A stretch of DNA of 63,495 nucleotides, counting the filler, from Rhabdomonas costata (taxonomy: Eukaryota), in NCBI GenBank assembly GCA_019059605.1. It is 24 parts of 24 records of this genome, joined end to end, with 100 filler letters (N's around TTAATTAATTAA, not from the genome) between each part and the next. Parts side by side here need not be neighbours in the genome. Positions count along the whole stretch, not along the records: positions 23,868 to 26,418 come from JAHMHO010002910.1; 23 more parts are not named here. One strand, 5' to 3'. The position numbers were made by a program, and so were the translations under genes. Every line of letters begins with the position of its first letter. Within the stretch, counting starts at the first letter, position 1. Of the stretch, positions 23,868 through 49,470 are shown piece by piece. The notes under the pieces were generated by a model. That model did no database searches and was not told the DNA's origin. It was given only the letters and a program-made list of their open reading frames with translations.

Positions 23868-26290
23868 TGATCAGGGAGCGGAGGGTTGCGCGGCCCATGG
23901 GGTCCCCAACGTGCAGGTGGTTACTCCCGAGGAAGCGGAGCCGGCTAAGAAGGAAAAGGAGAGTGAAAAGGTAGAGAGGGAGAAGGAGGAGGAGCGCATC
24001 CGCGACAGGAAGCGCGACGTGATCATGGCCATGGCCTCCCGGCTGGACCATCTATGGGTGTGCGCACTTGCGGACAAACACACACACACACACGGCTCAC
24101 TTGCATGAACAGAGCTCTGTTTGGTGATCAGCCAAACGGAACCCGGTTTTTCAGTTTTTGTGGTTGGCCCCTACTCAGCAGTGCACCCCTGTCAGGAGCC
24201 TCTTTTGCCACTGCCTTGTCGTGCTGCTTTGACGCCTTTGCCCCAACTCAGAAATAGTGGGGTCCCTTCCCATTCGCTTGTTGGATTGGTGTCCTCTACT
24301 TGGCAGTCCATAACGTTCAACGCGGTGATCACCACGAACTACAGCATGGAGCTGTGCATGTGCTCTAAGAGGTGCGACGGCGGCCGCTGCTCCGAAGAGA
24401 GCTGTGCGCTGTGCTCATGGCCGGCACCCCTTGCCCCCAGGGAGGTGGGGATGCCCAGCTACCTGGACATCCTTCGGGTGCAGCTGCCTTCTTCGTCGTC
24501 TTCGTCTTCGTCGTTGGCGCAGGGCCCGGCGCGGCCCCCGGTGATCCAGATTCACGGCAGCGTGCGGTGGCCGGAGAGTGTGGTGCTGAGCAGCGAGGGG
24601 TACCGGCAGCTGCTGCACACGCAGCCCGCGTACACGGCGTTCCTCAAGAGGTGTGTGGATGTTGTGTGATTCTCCACAGACGGAACACTTTGATGCATAG
24701 TACCCCTCACCCACTCCGGATGACTGCTGTATCTTGAAGAGGTGTTGGTTGAAATTCTTCATTTAGCATCGTTTTTGGTTTCTTCCCGCAGAGCTCTGTG
24801 GGGTCACGCATGCAAAACAGAAACTACAAGTCAAGCTTGACCTGACGCCCTGGTGTGTGTGTGAGTGTGTCTGGGCAGCTTCAGGTTGCGAAGTGGTGGG
24901 AAGGGTTGCAGTTGGCTTCTGATGACAGCGTGGCGTCGGGCTGTTCCTTTCGCTGTCTTTCCTGCCATATTTCTCGTAGAGTTCCTCTTTGTGCAGTGTG
25001 ATGTCCTGTCGCACTATTCTGTACTTCGGCTTCAGCTTCACGGACGACTACCTCAATGAGGTTTCCCTTCCCCACCACACTCTTATGCAGTGGTGGGCCC
25101 TTGCAAGTGGACCTGTCTTCGCCCTCTTCAGCTGGCCTTTTTGAAACTCTCAACCAGTCGTATGCGGCGTCAGCGGAAATTTGGGAACATTTATTTCGAG
25201 CCGAAGCGTCATGCTTTGTGCTTGACAATACGCTCAATGGTGTGCATCGAACAGGCTGGACTGGACAGGATGGACTGTCGACCCAAAATCGGACTCATAA
25301 CACACACATAGTGGCGCGGTGGGGTCATGTATGATAATAGAGTGGTGTGGTGGAAATAATAAATCGCATTATAAGCGTGTAAATTGGAAAGCTTGTCCGC
25401 CTATGCCTGCGTGCTGTATTTCACCAGCAATGGCTGCGAAGATAGTGACACAAAAACGCAACAGAACTTTGTTGAGATGCCTCGAGAGGGTAGAGAGGGT
25501 TCCTTGGACTGCTCGCCATTCCCATCTCCTAGATTCCCGAATTTTATCCATTACAAAGAAGGTTCATTCCATGGATTTGTTCCGAAATCCTGGTGCGGGG
25601 TTTGCACCACCGCTCAAACAGATTCGCAGTGAGGTGATGGCGATGAAGACCCACAGGGACCGCAAGGGGCTCGAGGACGCCGCCTCGCTGGCCTACGCCA
25701 TCGCCAACGACCAGTCCCCCTCGCACTGCAAGCACTACCGCGACCACGAGGGGGTGATCTTCCTGACATGGGACAGCCGCCGCGATGGCTTCGGAGTGGC
25801 GGACCGGATCATGGGAAGCATCTTGAGGATGACTCAGGTTTGTGGGCCAGGTCGATGTGACCGCTGACTGGGGTGTGTCTGAAACAGCCTTCGTCCACCA
25901 CGGGCCCCATATGCCGCCGCAGGAATGGAGGTGTCACTTACTCCTTGGCCGTATTTTCCAGGATGTGTGGAGTTCGTGTGCCGAACAAGCGTGTACAGCC
26001 GGTTCATAAAAATTTCAAGCCCTTCTGCCAGCTGTTGGAAGCTGCGTCAGTCCCCATTTGGCTGAAGTGCGTCTGTTTCTTCCATCGATGGTGGCTGCCC
26101 TGAAAAATCGAAGAAACGCATCCTGTCTCAGGTGGCAGCAGCCCTCAGCGGGTCCACAGTGATCCTTTGCAGTTTGGGGCACACCACGGAGCCCGAGAAC
26201 CTGGTCTCGCTGTACATGCACTTGGAGCAGGAGAGGAACAACCCGCTGTACAAGACCTTCCCGCCGTCCTACTTCGCTCCTTTCAAGCTG
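23868..26290 (+). CDS. SIR2-like (SIR2_2 / immune sirtuin-fold) protein, five internal exons: 23868-24057, 24307-24650, 24997-25060, 25622-25837, 26132-26290
   Basis: All introns are GT-AG and phase-consistent. Motifs in order: AVITTNYS, VIQIHGS, SVVLSSEGY, YTAFLKSVMSCRTILYFGFSFTDDYL, LAYAI. Confidence 0.85.
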
Positions 26291-26518
26291 GTAGGCGGTT
26301 TCTTTTTTTGCTCCCGTGCTATCGCTTTCGGTCTGCAACGCCGTTGTGTTGCTCTGCGATTTTGCGGGACGGTGGTCTAGAATAAATACTTGGATTTGAT
26401 TGTGGAAGCACACCACAANNNNNNNNNNNNNNNNNNNNNNNNNNNNNNNNNNNNNNNNNNNNTTAATTAATTAANNNNNNNNNNNNNNNNNNNNNNNNNN
26501 NNNNNNNNNNNNNNNNNN

Positions 26519-27322
26519 GGTTGTGGTGTGGTGGTCCGCGGCAGTGCCAAAGCCGATGCGGCGAAACACCGGGTCCCAAGGGTGGATAAACTCGGAGTGG
26601 ACCAGAGTCAGCCAATTGGCGTACAGCGATCCGAAGGCCATGTAGCTCCACACGTTTGCCGGAACAATCCGGGCGGTGATGACCAGGGGCACGAGGATCA
26701 TGAAGAGGGTGTCCAGCACAGAGCCGTTGAAGGCGTCGAACAGTTTGGGGTTCGTGAACCGGTGGTGGGGGTTGTGGGAGAGCTTGTAAAGCATGGGGTG
26801 CAAGACATGCTCCATTTTATGCATGAAGTACATCAGACAGTCCTGGATAATCAACTGGAGGAAGACGTGCAGCCAGTTCACTCCCCCGGAGAAGGCGTAA
26901 TATGATTTCGGCATCACCCCCAGCATCCACGTGAGACATAGGTACCCACCCAGCATCAAGAATCCCTCGGGCTGAGCCAGGTGGCCCTTCAAGGCGACAC
27001 CAAACTGGTAAGGTGGCGCACCTACCAGCTGCACCGGAACTGCGGAGCAAAGGTAGCCGTACTTCCAAAGCGAGAAATATATAATGGTGAAGGTCTGTCC
27101 CACAATCACAGCGAGAATTCCAAGGCTCAAGCCCAGGGGGGACGGGCGGACTCCCTTTTCAACATTCCAGTAGTCCTTGGGCTGGTCGTCGTACCAGGCC
27201 TCCGGAAAAACCTTCGCGTAGTTGGCGCCATACGTCAGAATCAAAGGAACGGTCAGGATGGATGCCCATAAACCCAAGAAAATGAGGCAGCTGGTCAAGC
27301 CACTTGTTAAAGCAGCGACCAT
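26519..27322 (-). CDS. Fatty acid hydroxylase/sterol desaturase superfamily protein, intronless, 3'-truncated
   Basis: His boxes YFMHKMEH and SHNPHH, then LVHSE and the start of the last box (ADHH). Several TM segments. ATG at 27322. Confidence 0.9.
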
Positions 27323-29362
27323 CGCAAAAACTTGCAGAAAAGTCAAAAAAGCAAATCTAAGATGAAGAAATGAAGATGAAGCAACAAGTCAATACCAAGA
27401 GACTGAGTCAACAAGGGCCTTAGTAAGTTCCCCCCACCCCACCCTTAAGATTTTGAGACGATGGTGGTTACCATCACCTTTTGACCACCTCGGGTTCACA
27501 TTTTCGCCGAGCATTCATGGGGATATCACTGCAGGCGTAGAGAAAGGAAGTGCTGGCAACAGTATCGAACAAATTTCTTTCAGAGCCCCCAGGGTGAGAG
27601 GGCAGACGCTTGAACCTGAACACACACACACACACACACACACAAAGAAACACGTGAAGACCCACGTACCAGAGTTGGCCAATTTTTTATGCTCAACGAA
27701 GTTTCTGTAAACGATTTTTCGATTTTTCGATTTTTCAGCGAAGTTTACGCCTTAACCGTTTTGACTTTGACAATTTTTCAACACATTCGTTTCAAAGGGG
27801 TGGAGAAAGTCCCACGAGTTGATCTTTGGTGCATGGGTGTGGGCATGCTGCTGTGTGGGAGGCCTTGATTCACTGATGTGTTGCGCTGTTGCTTATATCG
27901 TTGGGTGTGCTTGAGGGTTCTTCAACTTGTATCTGGGTTGCCAAGAGGCCCCGATAGCCGAGGCAACGTCCCCAATTCCACAGTAAAAGTGCTCGAATCA
28001 GAGCTTCAATACATGTTCTTCGTGTTCCCCGACAAAAAATCGGGGACAGGTTACCTTTTCGGGCTTGAACTCGACGCCTACCTCGTTTTAAACCCAAAAA
28101 AACACAATTTTGGTTTTTTTGAGAAAAAATTTGCAAAGTCGACGAAACAGGGCTGGCCAGGCCAAAAAAAATTTTCGCGGGTGCCACCCAGCCTTTGAGT
28201 CGGCGGTCCGGACCACCTCGTCGGATAGGCCCCCCCTCCTAACCTGGGGGCAGGTCAAAACATCAAGTCTTGAGACGTCGATTACCTCGCACAGAAAAAA
28301 GCCCCACTCAAAAATTTCACAAGAGACGGCCAAACACACGTGGACATTTTCTCCTTTTCCCTGCATATTAAACCTCAGCTTACCACGTTCGTACGTCATT
28401 TGTTTTGGGAAGAAGTTGCCACACGCAACACGGGTCCACTCGGCCAAGAAAATGTTCTATAAAGGAAAAAATATATAAACTGTATTTAAAAAACTCCCAA
28501 CTTCCCCGTTATCAAAATACTAACCACCAAATTCAAAGATTGAATCATCAATCTTTCAAAAAGAACCTTTGAGCACCAAATCAATGGGATTTTTCAAACA
28601 AACATTGATGTCATCAAATTAAAAAATTGAACTTTTTGAATTGAAAATGCAACATTTTTTTTGCTATTGTTGATATTCTGAAATTCTGTAGGATTTTTTT
28701 ACTGGCGAAAGTTTGCATGTGATGGTGAAGAGTGCAATTCAGGTATTTTGATAGTTTTTCGGATGTTTTTTTGGACGTGCCGAGGGTGAATCTCCGGCAC
28801 ACCACAAGCGGGGTTATTGAGCGGCTGCTGTGCTTCTGGGCTCCCAATCCGGGCGAGGAAGCTGTCAGCTCCTCAGGCTGGCTGGGGTCGTGTTGGAACG
28901 GGAGGTGCTTCTCGTGCACTACCCGGTCGCCGCCGATACTGTGTTGGAGCTTCAAGTCACGGACCTCAGAAGAAAGCGACCCGTGCTACCTTCCCCGTTT
29001 CTCATTTCAGCAAACCCATTTGATTCCTCGCGGGACGTACCGACAGACCCAATCATCACACCAACACNNNNNNNNNNNNNNNNNNNNNNNNNNNNNNNNN
29101 NNNNNNNNNNNTTAATTAATTAANNNNNNNNNNNNNNNNNNNNNNNNNNNNNNNNNNNNNNNNNNNNGTTTTTGGTTTGTTTGGTTGTTTTTTTTCTTCG
29201 TTCTTCTTTCCTTCCTCTCACGACCATGCGTTTTCCTACCGCAAAAGTTTCTCTTCCTTTTCATGACCACCACCCAGCCGGTTCCCATGCCACAGCTTGC
29301 CCCTTGCCACTTGTGAGTTTGTAAGGTATGTGCGTGTCTGTATGTTTGAGTGTGTGGGGTGC

Positions 29363-39923: not shown

Positions 39924-41976
39924 AATCGCTTGCACGGAATTCTATTGGCATTGCGATGTCTGGCGGTGGTGCTGTGGGTTCACCCGAATATATATAGCAT
40001 TCATTTAAGATTCGCCTGCAGCGTTGAGGAGCAAGAAAATTTGAAAGCAAGGTTCACCCAAAGCCCAGTGGCGGGCCAACCTGTGCTCCCCTCTGAAATA
40101 TCCCATGCCCCACGCTTAACCGCACCTTGGAGTGCGTCTTCTGCTTGACCCTGGTAATTCCTCCTCACCCCTCCTGCATGCGGACGAAATGCGGCTGCAT
40201 TGGAGCTCGCTGTATGTAATGGTCTTCGGTCCGCCTGGTCTTTTTTGCACTCCTTTTGTGGGTACCCGACGCACCTCTACTTTTTCCCTCTTTGTCCTCT
40301 TTTTGTTCACGGAAGGAGCAGGTGACGTTCGAAAACTGAAAAGAGCCACCCAACCAATCGTTCATGTGGGATGAAAATCGCCTTCCCCATGGTTGACCAA
40401 CTTACGGTTCAACATATGGGGAGTGCCGGAAACTCTTTTTCAATTGCACTACACAGGTAGTGGTTGAGAGGAAAAACGGAAAAAAAAACTTGTGCAATTG
40501 CGGATGCACAGATCTTGGCCGCCGAGTTCGAGCAGGAGCCCGCTCCGGTGGCGCTAATCAGCCACACTGCGAAGGGGATGGCCAATTTAATAGGTATTGC
40601 CAAGTGCACTGCTCCTGCCCCGCATGTCTGTGTGCAGCAGGATGGGTATGTGGTACGTCTCTCTCTTGGCATTGATGGCAGCCTGGTCAATAGTTGCTGA
40701 AGGCGTTGTTCTTGTGGTCCTTGACAATGAATATCCACGCAATTCTGCAACTCAAATCCGGGAACCTGGACTGCACTCTGGACGGCACCTCTAACAGCCG
40801 GATCTCCTCCATAATCCCCCTCCCCAACTGAGCCCACTGAGCATGACTGCGTTCTGTTCCTCTTGCTGTCGCAGGCGACTTCGTTGACCTGTGTGAGGCC
40901 ACGCAAGGTCAACTGAAGATTGCCCGTCGGGCCTTCACCCTGGCCGGGCTGCTACGCGAGCTGCACCACACCTTCGCTGCGGAGGCGGGGAGGATGGGGG
41001 TGCGGCTGGAGCTGGTGACCTCGGAGGAGCTTGTGCCGAGTGTTTTGCTGCTTGGGGACCGGTGTCGGCTTCGGCAGGTGAGGTTTGGAGGGGAGTTTGG
41101 GCACAAGGAAAGGTTCATGAGAAGCGTTACCCTTACGCTTTGCGCTGAACTCCTCCATGCCTTGAACTCAAGCGTGTGGCGTTTATTACGATGGCAACAT
41201 TCCTTCCTGGTGTTGGCCTGTTCTTGCTGCATGGTTTTGCCGCAGGTTCTGGTGAATTTGGTCGTGAACTCCCTGCAGGCGATGCCGGAGGACCTCCCTG
41301 CGGCGCGGCGGTGGGTGAGTGTGCGGGCCAGTGTTGGAGCGCGGCCCGGCACGGTGCAGTTCACGGTTTCGGACGGGGGCGTGGGGATCCCTGCGCGGGC
41401 CCAGGCGGGGCTGTTTGTGCCGTTCCACCAGTGCGCCAGCTCTTCGGGGGTGCGGCAGCGGAACTGTTCAGGGCAGAGCTGTGGGTTTGGGCTTGGGCTG
41501 GCGATCTGCTCCGCCCTGGTGCAGAGGATGGGGTATGGGTCTGTGTGCCCAGGTGGAGCAAGTAGACGTGATGCGTTACCCTGTGGTGCGGATTTCGAGT
41601 GTTCCTTTTTCTTCTTCTGGCATTTCTGGGAAGTTTTGCTGCTATTTTTTACGAAAGGTTTTCCGAGGTGCCGGCAGCCCGGGGTACACTCGTGCTATTC
41701 GTTGTCCATGAGAATGTTTGTGATACTCTGGTACGGGGATTGTCGAATGCATACACTGGTTTGCCTTCCTTTATAACAATCCGTAAATCCGTCTACTTGA
41801 TGGGCACTTCTCTGAATGGGTGAACGGGAGCACCCCCCAAAATACGAACTGTCTTGGCATACCTAAATCTCCCGATTGTCCTTGCTACTCTAACCTGCAG
41901 GGGTGAGATCAGCTTGCAGAGCGTCCCTGGCGAGGGCACCACCGTAACCTTCTGCCTGCCTCTGGCGGAGCACCGG
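39924..41976 (+). CDS. Histidine kinase fragment (HisKA end + HATPase_c); exons ~39924-39965, 40512-40593, 40875-41077, 41246-41532, 41901-~41976
   Basis: NRLHGIL, MANLIGDFVDL, GDRCRLRQVLVNLVVNS (N box), VSDGGVGI (G1), LFVPFHQ (F), GFGLGLAIC (G2) and MGGEISLQSVPGEGTTVTF. The first exon is the least certain. Confidence 0.93.
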
Positions 41977-47440: not shown

Positions 47441-48324
47441 CTGCGAGGGAAAAGCGGACAGCCTCTCTTGGGGAAAAAAGCATAAGGAGCTTCTATGTTG
47501 GCTCATCGGCGGCGACAGTGCTTGAACAACGGGCACACCTGAGCAGCCAGCCTAACATTAACACTGCTGAGATATCCTTTCTGCTGACATCTCCCTCGAA
47601 CAACCACANNNNNNNNNNNNNNNNNNNNNNNNNNNNNNNNNNNNNNNNNNNNTTAATTAATTAANNNNNNNNNNNNNNNNNNNNNNNNNNNNNNNNNNNN
47701 NNNNNNNNTGGTGGTTTCTATTTACTTCATTTTTGTTAATGCGTGCTGTCCGCCTTGGATAAACCGCATTGGAGCTTGGTTGATGCTTATATTTGCGTGC
47801 TAAACGAATTTGGAGTGCAGTAGCGAACGCAGCTTTTGGTTTCGTTTCGGTTTACTTTCGTGTTCCGAGATCTTCTAGTGAACCTGGATAGAGCAAGGGG
47901 ACAACGAATGAGCATTTTAAAAGCATCGGAAAGCAGATGGTCTTGCGTGAGCAGGAAAACGGCAAGCGGGAGGGCAGGTCCTAACGTCTGGGCGGAGCTG
48001 GTGTATTGGAGCCTCTTGCGCTGCGGAGTCCCAAGTCGAGCCCCAGTCGGGGCCGAGTCGAAGGTAAAATTCCAAGGCAAACGTCGATTTAGCGCCGAAA
48101 CCAAAGTATCCTTCTTGTTTTAGCAAAAGGGTATTACTCCGAGATTCGCGCGAACAGAAAGCCGAGGCTCTCTCTCACTGTTACTATCATCACAAGCACA
48201 TCACACATTGAAGGAATGAAATAGCCACCTGCATGCCCATCCACCATCTCTTCCCGGTCCGTTGGTCTGACGCTTGACACACCCCTGTCGGCATTCAGAG
48301 GCTTTCGCTTTTTCCTTACTTGGA

Positions 48325-49470
48325 ATGGGAACATGCCACTGCCACTGTTGTCCTCGCCTTGCCTGCGTTGATTTCTTCTACCGTCGCTTCAAAAACCGCA
48401 TCTCACCTCACCGCGTGGACAAGGTGACCCTCCGCCTTCCCCCAGAGTTACTTCCTCACCGGAATACCACCTCACTTTACGCCCCAATATCCAGCGAAGT
48501 CTTTTCTTCCCAAGTGGTGTATGAGGTCGACCCGGAAGGGACCATCACCTACATGAAGGTCGACGGTCAAGAGGTGACTCCCCCGCACACTCCCTTGTGG
48601 GCCATCATGATGCCCGCGCTGCACCCATTCTACAAGTCACTACACCGCAACGTGTGCTCGGGAGTGGTGCAGCATTCGATCAGCTTTCGGTGGTTCTGCG
48701 ACACCCCCAGCTCGCGGACGGAGATGGTGATGGTTGTGGAGCGGATCCCGACCGGCGCGAAGTACTACTCCTGCACATTGAGTTCCACCCCCCATGACGC
48801 ATCGTTTATGTCCCGAATGCATTTCACGGATGACAGCTCGCTGTCGCCGTGGACGCAGTGCTGCCAGTGCCTGCGGCTGAAGGACAAGGAGGCCTGGCTG
48901 ACCCCCGGGGAGTTCTACCAGGCTCACCTGGAGGAGCTTCAGTGCCGCTGCCCAGTGTCCCACACCATATGCCCGGAGTGTGTGTCTCAGTATTGCGGGC
49001 AGAGCGAGCAGATGCGCACCATTCTGCGCGAAGCCAATGTATCTCTCGTGGATCCCGAAGTCGTATGCTCCGCCCTTGTAGTAGACGACGACGCGGTCTC
49101 CGCACGCGTTGTTGCCGCCCTGTTGACCTCCTTGCATTGCTCGGTGGAGGTGGAGACCTCCCCCCTGCAGGCGATGAAGATGCTGACCTCTCAGGCGGCG
49201 TGCAGCTCGTTTGACCTCCTGGTGGTGGACAACGTGATGCCCGAGGTGAGTGGGGCGGAGCTGATCCGCACCCTTCGTGCGGTTCATCACCCCGCGTTCA
49301 TCATTGGAGTCTCGGGGAGTGCGAGTGCGATGAATGAGATGACCACGGCGGGAGCCGATCACTTTCTGTGGAAGCCGGTTCGCATTGCGGTGCTGTCTGA
49401 GGTGCTGAAGACGGCGCTGCCTCAGCTGCCTCGCAGCAGAAGTCCGGGGAGTGCTGATTCGCTCCTGTAA
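48325..49470 (+). CDS. Intronless response regulator: Cys-rich N-terminus, PAS-like domain, CxxC...SHxICPxC module and C-terminal receiver (REC) domain
   Basis: REC motifs ALVVDDD, LLVVDNVMPEVSG (phospho-Asp), IIGVSG and GADHFLWKP. Zinc-like module QCCQCLR...W...SHTICPEC. Confidence 0.9.
   Translation: MGTCHCHCCPRLACVDFFYRRFKNRISPHRVDKVTLRLPPELLPHRNTTSLYAPISSEVFSSQVVYEVDPEGTITYMKVDGQEVTPPHTPLWAIMMPALHPFYKSLHRNVCSGVVQHSISFRWFCDTPSSRTEMVMVVERIPTGAKYYSCTLSSTPHDASFMSRMHFTDDSSLSPWTQCCQCLRLKDKEAWLTPGEFYQAHLEELQCRCPVSHTICPECVSQYCGQSEQMRTILREANVSLVDPEVVCSALVVDDDAVSARVVAALLTSLHCSVEVETSPLQAMKMLTSQAACSSFDLLVVDNVMPEVSGAELIRTLRAVHHPAFIIGVSGSASAMNEMTTAGADHFLWKPVRIAVLSEVLKTALPQLPRSRSPGSADSLL

Follow-up and report, generated by a model that had tools for sequence, protein, structure and literature searches.

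We analyzed a window of 63,495 bases of DNA from Rhabdomonas costata (assembly GCA_019059605.1) and found that one of its contigs, at positions 23868-26418, almost certainly carries a real spliced gene of the SIR2_2 family on the plus strand. The contig is 2551 bp long with a GC (guanine plus cytosine) content of 0.554, and the gene is cut at both contig ends. What is preserved is probably the middle of a multi-exon eukaryotic gene, comprising most of the SIR2_2 catalytic domain and the start of a receiver-like domain. It is well supported that the gene product falls into the SIR2_2/SIRim branch rather than among the deacetylase sirtuins, and the gene belongs to a little-described eukaryotic branch of SIR2_2. 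A linker map showed that the window is composed of 24 contigs of 2543-2559 bp each, apparently sorted by length, which are joined through linkers of the form N44-TTAATTAATTAA-N44. Nothing can be read across these linkers, and the genes in the window come without genomic context.

The gene fragment was resolved into five plus-strand exons. All introns begin with GT and end with AG, the intron phases are consistent, and the joined exons give 972 nt, corresponding to 324 codons that are free of stops. Exon 1 (23869-24057) is certain in its 3′ part and open at its 5′ limit, the frame being open from the contig start; it ends with ...MASRLDHLW at the donor GTGTGC. Its last ~23 codons, directly 5′ of exon 2, align to the relatives P0002, P0007, and P0001 (...VMA/SSRL(D/E/Q)H...), and the Lys/Glu-rich, low-complexity part further upstream is without a homolog and includes a possible acceptor at 23915-23916. 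Exon 2 (24307-24650), bordered by the acceptor ...cttggcag and the donor AG/gtgtgt, encodes the SIR2_2 core. As observed along this exon, the ITTNYS motif (24328-24345) contains the Asn codon equivalent to ThsA Asn112 (24337-24339), and it is followed by a six-Cys stretch (24355-24414) consisting of C-x-C, two further Cys, and C-x-x-C. Next comes a TCN microsatellite (24489-24515) that codes for eight Ser in a row, then the IHGS motif (24550-24561), whose His codon (24553-24555) is equivalent to ThsA His152 and FAM118B His206, and finally the VVLSSEGY motif (24580-24603). Exon 3 (24997-25060) has only 64 nt and encodes (S)VMSCRTILYFGFSFTDDYLNE, which includes ILYFGFSFTDDYLNE; the Ser codon is split between the last two bases of exon 2 and the first base of exon 3. 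Exon 4 (25622-25837) provides the final part of SIR2_2 (IRSEVMAM...LAYAI...HEGV...LRMTQ) and keeps the conserved columns R538, A557, and E574. Exon 5 (26132-26290; acceptor ...cctgtctcag, phase 0) encodes the first ~53 residues of the receiver-like C-terminal domain (VAAALSGSTVIL...) and is followed by a GT donor at 26291.

The four introns, all on the plus strand, span 24058-24306 (intron 1, 249 nt, containing a (CA)n run), 24651-24996 (intron 2, 346 nt, phase 2), 25061-25621 (intron 3, 561 nt), and 25838-26131 (intron 4, 294 nt). The GC content of the exons was 0.60-0.65, except for exon 3 (0.50), compared with 0.49-0.54 for the introns. The 3′ part of intron 3 shows no stop in the exon 4 frame and is without a homolog; an extension of exon 4 into this part was considered and rejected, given that the resulting 107-aa frame matched no Pfam family and that the tblastn extension merely repeated residues of exon 3. 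Similarly, an acceptor for exon 5 at 26171-26172 was discarded, as it breaks the frame and fits no homolog, whereas the acceptor at 26130-26131 keeps the phase and agrees with P0002, P0007, and P0003. Short dinucleotide runs were observed within the introns, namely (CA)n at 24076-24094 in intron 1 and (GT)n at 24855-24872 in intron 2, and similar runs are present on neighboring contigs, for example at ~27620-27640.

The splice model was then compared with homologous proteins. The spliced product aligned to P0002 (1858 aa) in a single BLASTP segment over residues 1475-1743, with 52% identity over 293 aa and an E-value of 7e-90, and to P0007 with 48% identity (E 6e-77), again in a single segment over all junctions. 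All four junctions lie in gap-free conserved alignment, as in ...FLK/S/VMS... compared to ...FLKSLMS.... When eight relatives were compared with the window by tblastn, exons 2-4 were recovered collinearly with all eight, and exon 5 with two (P0002 and P0007); the identity of exon 3 to the relatives was 57-88%. The same tblastn search did not locate the rest of the gene on other contigs of the window, where the matches had E-values of 0.24-0.93, and no Pfam family was detected at E≤0.01 in the five minus-strand frames of the contig itself. The first-pass annotation, made from the sequence alone, had proposed an intron-containing eukaryotic gene with five phase-consistent exons, in which the motifs ITTNY, IHGS, VVLxxxxY, and a GFSFTD-type motif follow in this order, TTNYS replaces TTNYD, and a six-Cys insert comes after it. 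The GT-AG introns and the single BLASTP segments through all junctions bear out this structure, the motifs are all present in the spliced frame in the claimed order, and both the TTNYS at 24328-24345 and the insert at 24355-24414 are real. It had also stated that the 64-nt exon appears in no listed open reading frame (ORF). This is explained by the stop-to-stop frame of exon 3, which measures only 54 aa (24980-25144). Frames are usually listed from 60 aa upward, and the exon thereby stays hidden from the ORF track.

Homologs were collected with exon 2 as the query. A word-index homolog search gave no match, and a HMMER search of 1.84 billion representatives gave 26 matches at E≤1e-3. Two of these, P0004 (a chitin-binding peritrophin repeat protein) and P0024 (an FG-GAP/fn3 protein), matched only the Cys-rich or low-complexity part and were dropped. 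P0001 (224 aa), the best-scoring relative, departs from the family right after ...SEGYG in its C-terminal ~30 residues, which looks like a gene model reading into an unspliced intron, at a position different from that of intron 2 of the window gene.

The N-terminal NAD-binding loop of the family was sought at the contig start. The dinucleotide-binding loop GAG(F)(S/C) is present in the relatives P0002, P0007, P0027, P0005, P0017, P0022, and P0016. A candidate in the window, GAEGCAAHGVPN ("GAEG", 23877-23888), was rejected, as mafft --add left the GAG columns empty. In the relatives, GAG and TTNY are separated by at least 75 residues that include an ELAAQLLED-type helix, whereas in the window only ~36 residues without the helix motif precede TTNY. 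The absence of this helix motif, therefore, places the GAG loop in an exon beyond the contig.

Next, the family assignment was examined using profiles. Exon 2 alone matched Pfam SIR2_2 (PF13289) at profile positions 34-78 and scored 33.7 bits (E 4.6e-8) where the cut-off is 24.5, and exon 3 matched positions 83-100 below the cut-off (13.4 bits, E 0.085). Among the relatives, seven of eight SIR2-type proteins scored 48-75 bits against PF13289, and the fragment P0001 scored 19.8, which is below the cut-off. In contrast, no exon matched canonical SIR2 (PF02146) at E≤10, nor did any of ten proteins from the exon 2 search at E≤0.01. A profile built from 16 relatives (A1) was searched against the Protein Data Bank (PDB), and its best match was Streptococcus equi ThsA (7UXT, E 7e-22), an entry titled "USG protein" that corresponds to SeThsA (PMC12700824). 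It was followed by the SIR2 chain of the KomBC complex (9v0g, 2e-17), KomC (1e-16), Bacillus cereus and Escherichia coli ThsA (6lhx/8wc0/8bto, ~1e-15 to 1e-16), DSR2 (4e-10), and FAM118B (2.7e-7). The best PADLOC models for the relatives were SIR2-type LmuA and ThsA1.

A structural comparison was conducted with an AlphaFold model of the relative P0027 (783 aa), which was computed from a 97-row alignment and stands in for the window protein. The model had a mean pLDDT of 73.6 and a pTM of 0.76, with the SIR2 domain mostly above 90. Foldseek ranked ThsA, KomC, DSR2, and Avs5 first. In the VIA search, the model matched SeThsA with Z 20.9 (253 residues aligned, rmsd 3.0), KomC (8ZSF) with Z 20.7 (259 of 264 residues), FAM118B (9r0p_B) with Z 19.4 (274 aligned, 13% identity), KomBC with Z 18.9, Avs5 with Z 16-17, PsSIR2 with Z 13.6, and Sir2-HerA with Z 11.5-12.7; canonical sirtuins reached Z 9-11.4. 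It had been claimed beforehand that the protein belongs to the SIR2_2 branch and not to the deacetylase sirtuins, and a comparison of a model with ThsA and FAM118B had been suggested as a check. Both the profiles (PF13289 without PF02146, and ThsA, KomC, and DSR2 as the best PDB matches) and the Z-scores of 19-21 for SIR2_2 enzymes on the P0027 model agree with that assignment.

We then analyzed the active-site residues. In the 97-row alignment, the His, the Gly, and one Tyr show no variation, and conservation reaches 90% or more in another 31 columns. The window protein keeps 26 of the 27 conserved columns covered by the contig, the exception being a Gly in the Cys insert; seven N-terminal conserved columns (GAG loop, Trp, and Gln) are absent, being upstream of the contig. 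The two residues of the NAD site, Asn in TTNY and His in IHG, are kept, and the T, T, and N are near-invariant across the 97 rows. It has been established that the ThsA substitutions N112A and H152A abolish NAD+ cleavage (PMC7272460) and that FAM118B uses H206 and D255 (PMC12700824). The residue after TTNY is Ser, Thr, Asn, or Asp in the eukaryote-like clade defined below, and the Asp has been changed in most of it. This indicates that the change from Asp is an old, tolerated state rather than recent decay.

The Cys insert turned out to be a feature of the clade. The combination of CxC and CxxC in the interval between the Asn and the His was found in 7 of 98 rows (the window, P0027, P0002, P0007, P0003, P0009, and P0001), all of them in the inner eukaryote-like clade, and P0005 and P0028 retained CxC and one Cys. 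At least two Cys in this interval were found in 17 of 98 rows, none of which is a bacterial SIR2-receiver row. In canonical sirtuins, the zinc module follows the catalytic His, whereas the Cys insert precedes this residue, and C-terminal to it the window protein has no Cys cluster. For eukaryotic sirims, the zinc site and the cysteine tetrad are described as systematically absent (Bonhomme et al. 2024), and SIR2_2 proteins are likewise described as devoid of the zinc module and the cysteine tetrad (Baretic et al., PMC12700824). Given these statements, the clade-specific four-Cys pattern represents a real deviation in sequence, and the insert is a candidate metal-binding knuckle. The pLDDT of the P0027 model at the insert was only moderate (61-78). 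The spacing of the Cys at 24352-24426, along with a GG pair and an SWP tail, is reminiscent of plant cyclotides; a phmmer search of exon 2 against the PDB gave kalata B1 and its relatives at E 0.5-7, and with a best value of 0.5 homology to cyclotides was rejected as a chance-level match. In the loop that contains the eight-Ser run of the window gene, P0001 also has a Ser/Gly-rich run, indicating that this loop tolerates low-complexity expansion.

The first-pass annotation had further noted that another domain begins after the SIR2 fold, and this domain could be recognized in the relatives. Exon 5 aligns with P0002, P0007, and P0003 and matches positions 1-60 (approximately the first 55) of a profile made for the C-terminal domain of the eukaryotic proteins, with an i-E of 2.3e-7 in a search of ~136 sequences. 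The domain is complete in P0002, P0007, P0027, P0003, and P0023. In the P0027 model, it covers residues 605-773 with a pLDDT of ~85-95, and the VIA search related it to B12-binding flavodoxin-like domains (Z ~10) and to receiver domains (Z 9-9.9, 114-129 residues aligned). In bacterial relatives, sub-threshold Response_reg matches were obtained (E 0.007-0.19), the A1 profile weakly touched CheY (E 0.04), and several of these proteins are labeled "CheY-like" by JGI. On the basis of the model, the C-terminal domain is predicted to be receiver-like, with a receiver/flavodoxin-like fold.

Upstream of SIR2, some relatives carry a WWE domain: P0002 and P0022 passed the Pfam threshold, P0017 has it on record, and P0027 reached 20.2 bits against a cut-off of 21.1. 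P0002 (1858 aa) and P0007 (2322 aa), the nearest relatives of the window gene, are giant proteins with N-terminal regions of 1300-1800 residues. In these long regions, no Pfam family was found at E≤0.01 besides WWE and one ankyrin repeat, the latter carried by P0007, and profile searches detected no significant extra copies of the C-terminal domain in them (best i-E 0.98 and 8). The architecture of the clade is thus WWE (in some members), SIR2_2, and a receiver-like domain, and some relatives have 1100-2300 aa.

The distribution of relatives was also surveyed. The A1 profile search gave 113 proteins, mostly of 410-480 aa, most of which are bacterial one-gene combinations of SIR2 and a CheY-like domain; the named proteins among them are from Myxococcota, Nocardioides, and Steroidobacteraceae. 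A scan of prokaryotes with one genome per species found 155 pattern-matched stretches, 109 of which encode relatives, mainly from Myxococcota and Actinomycetota, and also from Gemmatimonadota, Gammaproteobacteria, and Planctomycetota. In the ESM Atlas, the nearest clusters, with scores of 0.92 and 0.91, consist of SIR2_2 proteins from Myxococcota. Some bacterial relatives have additional domains: an N-terminal XRE-type helix-turn-helix (HTH) domain was observed in P0037, P0039, P0041, P0043, P0044, and others, and a C-terminal calcineurin-like phosphoesterase (metallophosphoesterase) domain in P0042 and P0047. Such fusions may offer a clue to the regulation of the bacterial family.

A phylogeny with bacterial and eukaryotic SIR2_2 rows, which had been suggested as a check, was then calculated as a quick IQ-TREE run on 58 SIR2 cores hand-picked from 135 proteins, with fragments and near-duplicates left out. 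The window protein grouped with P0007 (SH-aLRT 93), then with P0002 (95), and then with P0027 and P0003 (96). It fell in a nine-row clade (98) that lies within a eukaryote-like set of 21 rows (92), and this set is placed among the bacterial SIR2-receiver rows. The label "eukaryote-like" is based on EukProt origin for P0003, P0017, P0026, and P0016, on WWE for P0002, P0022, and P0027, and on introns for the window gene, and for P0005, P0007, and P0028 on similarity only. The tree is effectively unrooted; the three outgroup rows form very long branches that are not on one side of a branch, so neither the root nor the direction of any transfer is fixed by it.

The gene was further compared with known systems. 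Thoeris ThsA (SeThsA 7UXT, BcThsA 6LHX/8BTO) is the best PDB profile match and, tied with KomC, the top structural match. It shares with the window protein the places of the catalytic Asn and His, and it likewise joins a SIR2_2 enzyme to a second alpha/beta domain. However, the second domain of ThsA binds the signal and is SLOG in type I and Macro in type II, whereas that of the relatives resembles receiver/flavodoxin-like folds, and no SLOG or Macro family was found in the relatives by Pfam scans. In Thoeris, the activating signal is made by the TIR-domain protein ThsB, whose gene lies next to that of ThsA. The alignment of P0027 to SeThsA spans both domains (model residues 211-765), and judged from the model the two second domains may be distantly related. 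ThsA also differs in having the Asp of TTNYD, where the window protein has Ser together with the Cys-rich insert between Asn and His, and the window gene is eukaryotic and intron-split, with relatives that carry WWE and very long N-terminal regions. KomC of the Kongming (KomBC) system, close by both Z-score and profile E-value, is a bacterial stand-alone SIR2 domain of 264 aa that works with partner proteins, without flanking domains or a Cys insert.

The closest non-eukaryotic relatives are the uncharacterized bacterial SIR2 plus CheY-like proteins, such as those of Pyxidicoccus trucidator, Corallococcus, Enhygromyxa, and Nocardioides aquiterrae. They show the same two-domain order, but they lack introns, the Cys insert, and WWE, keep the Asp of TTNFD invariant, and in some cases carry the XRE-type HTH or the metallophosphoesterase domain. 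FAM118B and FAM118A (SIRanc and SIRanc2) belong to the SIR2_2 subfamily and are a strong structural match to the P0027 model; FAM118B is eukaryotic, processes NAD, and is tied to immunity (PMC12700824; bioRxiv 10.1101/2024.09.18.613514). In contrast to the window clade, it is a single-domain protein without WWE, a receiver-like domain, or the Cys insert, and its Atlas score was 0.75. The FAM118 clade is described as restricted to vertebrates, its members sharing 41% identity or more with human FAM118A/B (PMC12700824), and P0027, at 13% structural-alignment identity to FAM118B, lies outside it.

Eukaryotic sirims have been reported from 19% of eukaryotic genomes and divided into clades A-E, with ThsA-like proteins as the nearest prokaryotic structural kin of clades B and C (Bonhomme et al. 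2024). The window gene resembles them as a eukaryotic SIRim with ThsA-like prokaryotic kin, and several of its close relatives come from EukProt, the database searched by those authors. The fusions described in the main text of that survey are with NACHT/NB-ARC plus repeats (clade A) and with Macro (clade C), and the zinc tetrad is said to be absent, in contrast to the Cys insert of the window clade. The words WWE, receiver, and CheY are absent from the main text of Bonhomme et al.; its supplementary tables may list this clade. As eukaryotic SIR2_2 proteins are widespread and relatives are present in the surveyed database, such a protist gene is not new in itself. No description of the WWE, SIR2_2, and receiver-like architecture or of the Cys insert was found in the literature searched.

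These comparisons suggest how the protein might work. NAD+ would be bound in a pocket formed by the off-contig GAG loop, the Asn in TTNY, and the His in IHG, and nicotinamide would be cleaved off, so that the protein would act as an NADase or as an ADP-ribosyl transfer enzyme of related type. The enzyme would stay off as long as no signal reaches its flanking domains; candidate signals are an ADP-ribose-type ligand at WWE and a partner or a ligand at the receiver-like domain. Self-assembly is likely to be involved, as in ThsA, KomC, Avs5, and FAM118B, and several SIR2_2 NADases need filament or oligomer formation (PMC12700824). The CxC...CxxC insert would probably bind a metal and stiffen the small lobe. 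The characterized close structural matches (ThsA, KomC, DSR2, Avs5, and FAM118B) all cleave NAD+, and by analogy we lean, with little confidence to spare, towards an NAD+-cleaving activity of the window protein. A role in defense or programmed cell death is suggested by the same analogy, but we consider it less likely than not.

Several observations weigh against an NAD+-cleaving, immune-type enzyme. The Asp of TTNYD, which is present in the PDB rows of ThsA and KomC and is invariant as TTNFD (D127 in alignment A3) in 25 bacterial relatives, is Ser here, and this change could alter or weaken the handling of nicotinamide. The GAG loop and most of the C-terminal domain are off the contig, so that the open frame covers a 324-codon fragment; WWE was seen in relatives and not in the window; and the structure comes from a relative at ~35-45% identity rather than from the window's own protein. 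FAM118B and FAM118A are each very weakly active alone in vitro (PMC12700824), indicating that membership of the family is no guarantee of strong NADase activity. Furthermore, the bacterial relatives have no conserved partner, the largest shared neighbor family occurring at 4 of 44 loci. In a survey with crude ORF calling that scanned only the nearest neighbors, PADLOC models matched at E≤1e-8 in 2 of 83 immediate-neighbor ORFs, one with a kinase domain and one with WYL. With the bacterial relatives lacking a defense context, the label "immune-type" comes from family resemblance only. The first-pass annotation had proposed a domesticated, NAD+-depleting effector, and the depletion of NAD+, the defense role, and the domestication are each hypothetical.

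Alternatively, the same protein may serve outside defense, as a component of ADP-ribose/poly(ADP-ribose) signaling or NAD metabolism, for example as a WWE-guided ADP-ribosyltransferase or a regulator of stress or DNA-damage signaling, with the receiver-like domain as an ordinary signaling input. We regard this as possible, although on the unlikely side. The WWE domains of the relatives would fit it, a domain that is reportedly typical of proteins in ubiquitination and ADP-ribosylation, as would the missing defense-island signal around the bacterial relatives and the receiver and histidine-kinase ATPase domains on other contigs of the assembly. A precedent for protein modification is also available in SirTM sirtuins, which ADP-ribosylate proteins (PMC12700824), but SirTM and canonical sirtuins match the profile no better than the immune NADases do, and the enzymes ThsA, KomC, DSR2, and Avs5 are immune NADases, with FAM118B tied to immunity as well. 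A far less probable reading is that of a copy in decay or without catalysis, in other words a pseudogene or a protein that serves as a scaffold without processing NAD+. Such decay could be read from the replacement of Asp by Ser in TTNYD, the Ser run derived from a TCN microsatellite, the low-complexity Lys/Glu stretch of exon 1 without a homolog, and the fact that the gene is known only as a 2.5-kb fragment. However, 324 codons run without a stop or frameshift, the conserved columns covered are nearly all retained, the Asn and the His among them, the Asp change is common to most of the eukaryote-like clade, and P0001 has its own Ser-rich run at the same loop.

A canonical deacylase sirtuin, a bacterial contaminant, or an assembly artifact is hardly conceivable as an explanation. 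In its favor, canonical sirtuins have a zinc module and a Cys-rich element is present here, and the closest non-eukaryotic relatives are bacterial. Nevertheless, PF02146 gave no match, the Z-scores of canonical sirtuins were about half those of SIR2_2 enzymes, and the Cys insert is located before the catalytic His. The four spliceosomal-type introns that split the reading frame and the closest relatives from EukProt transcriptomes together rule out a bacterial gene. Returning to the preferred interpretation, a spliced eukaryotic SIR2_2 gene whose product may cleave NAD+, a bolder version of it can be formulated, which we consider unlikely to hold. According to this, a eukaryote-only branch would have rebuilt the logic of Thoeris, in which WWE and a pseudo-receiver gate a SIR2_2 NADase with its own Cys4 metal site, yielding an NAD+-depletion switch triggered by ADP-ribose. 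The switch would act in stress or antiviral cell death of the protist, with WWE reading ADP-ribose or poly(ADP-ribose). The Cys4 site would have been acquired independently and, given the published absence of the tetrad, would form an exception, and the window gene would possibly be giant, at ~2000 aa like its nearest relative P0007.

NAD+-destroying immune-type sirtuins are a recurrent anti-phage weapon of bacteria, and FAM118B ties them to vertebrate innate immunity; the build and control of protist SIR2_2 versions have hardly been explored. The present gene documents one protist SIR2_2 lineage at the genomic level, introns included. Its noteworthy features are a conserved Cys-rich insert in a subfamily reputedly without metal sites, a receiver-like domain, for output or input, that the bacterial relatives have as well, and the WWE domain of relatives, which would couple ADP-ribose sensing to NAD+ cleavage. 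Should these features prove real, they would provide a tractable model for the rewiring of NAD+-depletion switches after transfer between bacteria and eukaryotes; if not, the gene is one more member of a family present in about a fifth of eukaryotic genomes.

The remaining contigs of the window were scanned for further features. No Rfam family was found in the whole window at gathering thresholds. A Response_reg receiver domain (48271-49467, plus strand, 59.9 bits) and a histidine-kinase-type HATPase_c domain (40847-41773, plus strand, 49.7 bits) were detected on other contigs, indicating that the organism has two-component-type signaling parts. The next contig encodes a fatty-acid hydroxylase on the minus strand (26519-27322, 45.6 bits), whose nearest ESM Atlas clusters are 80-94% eukaryotic.

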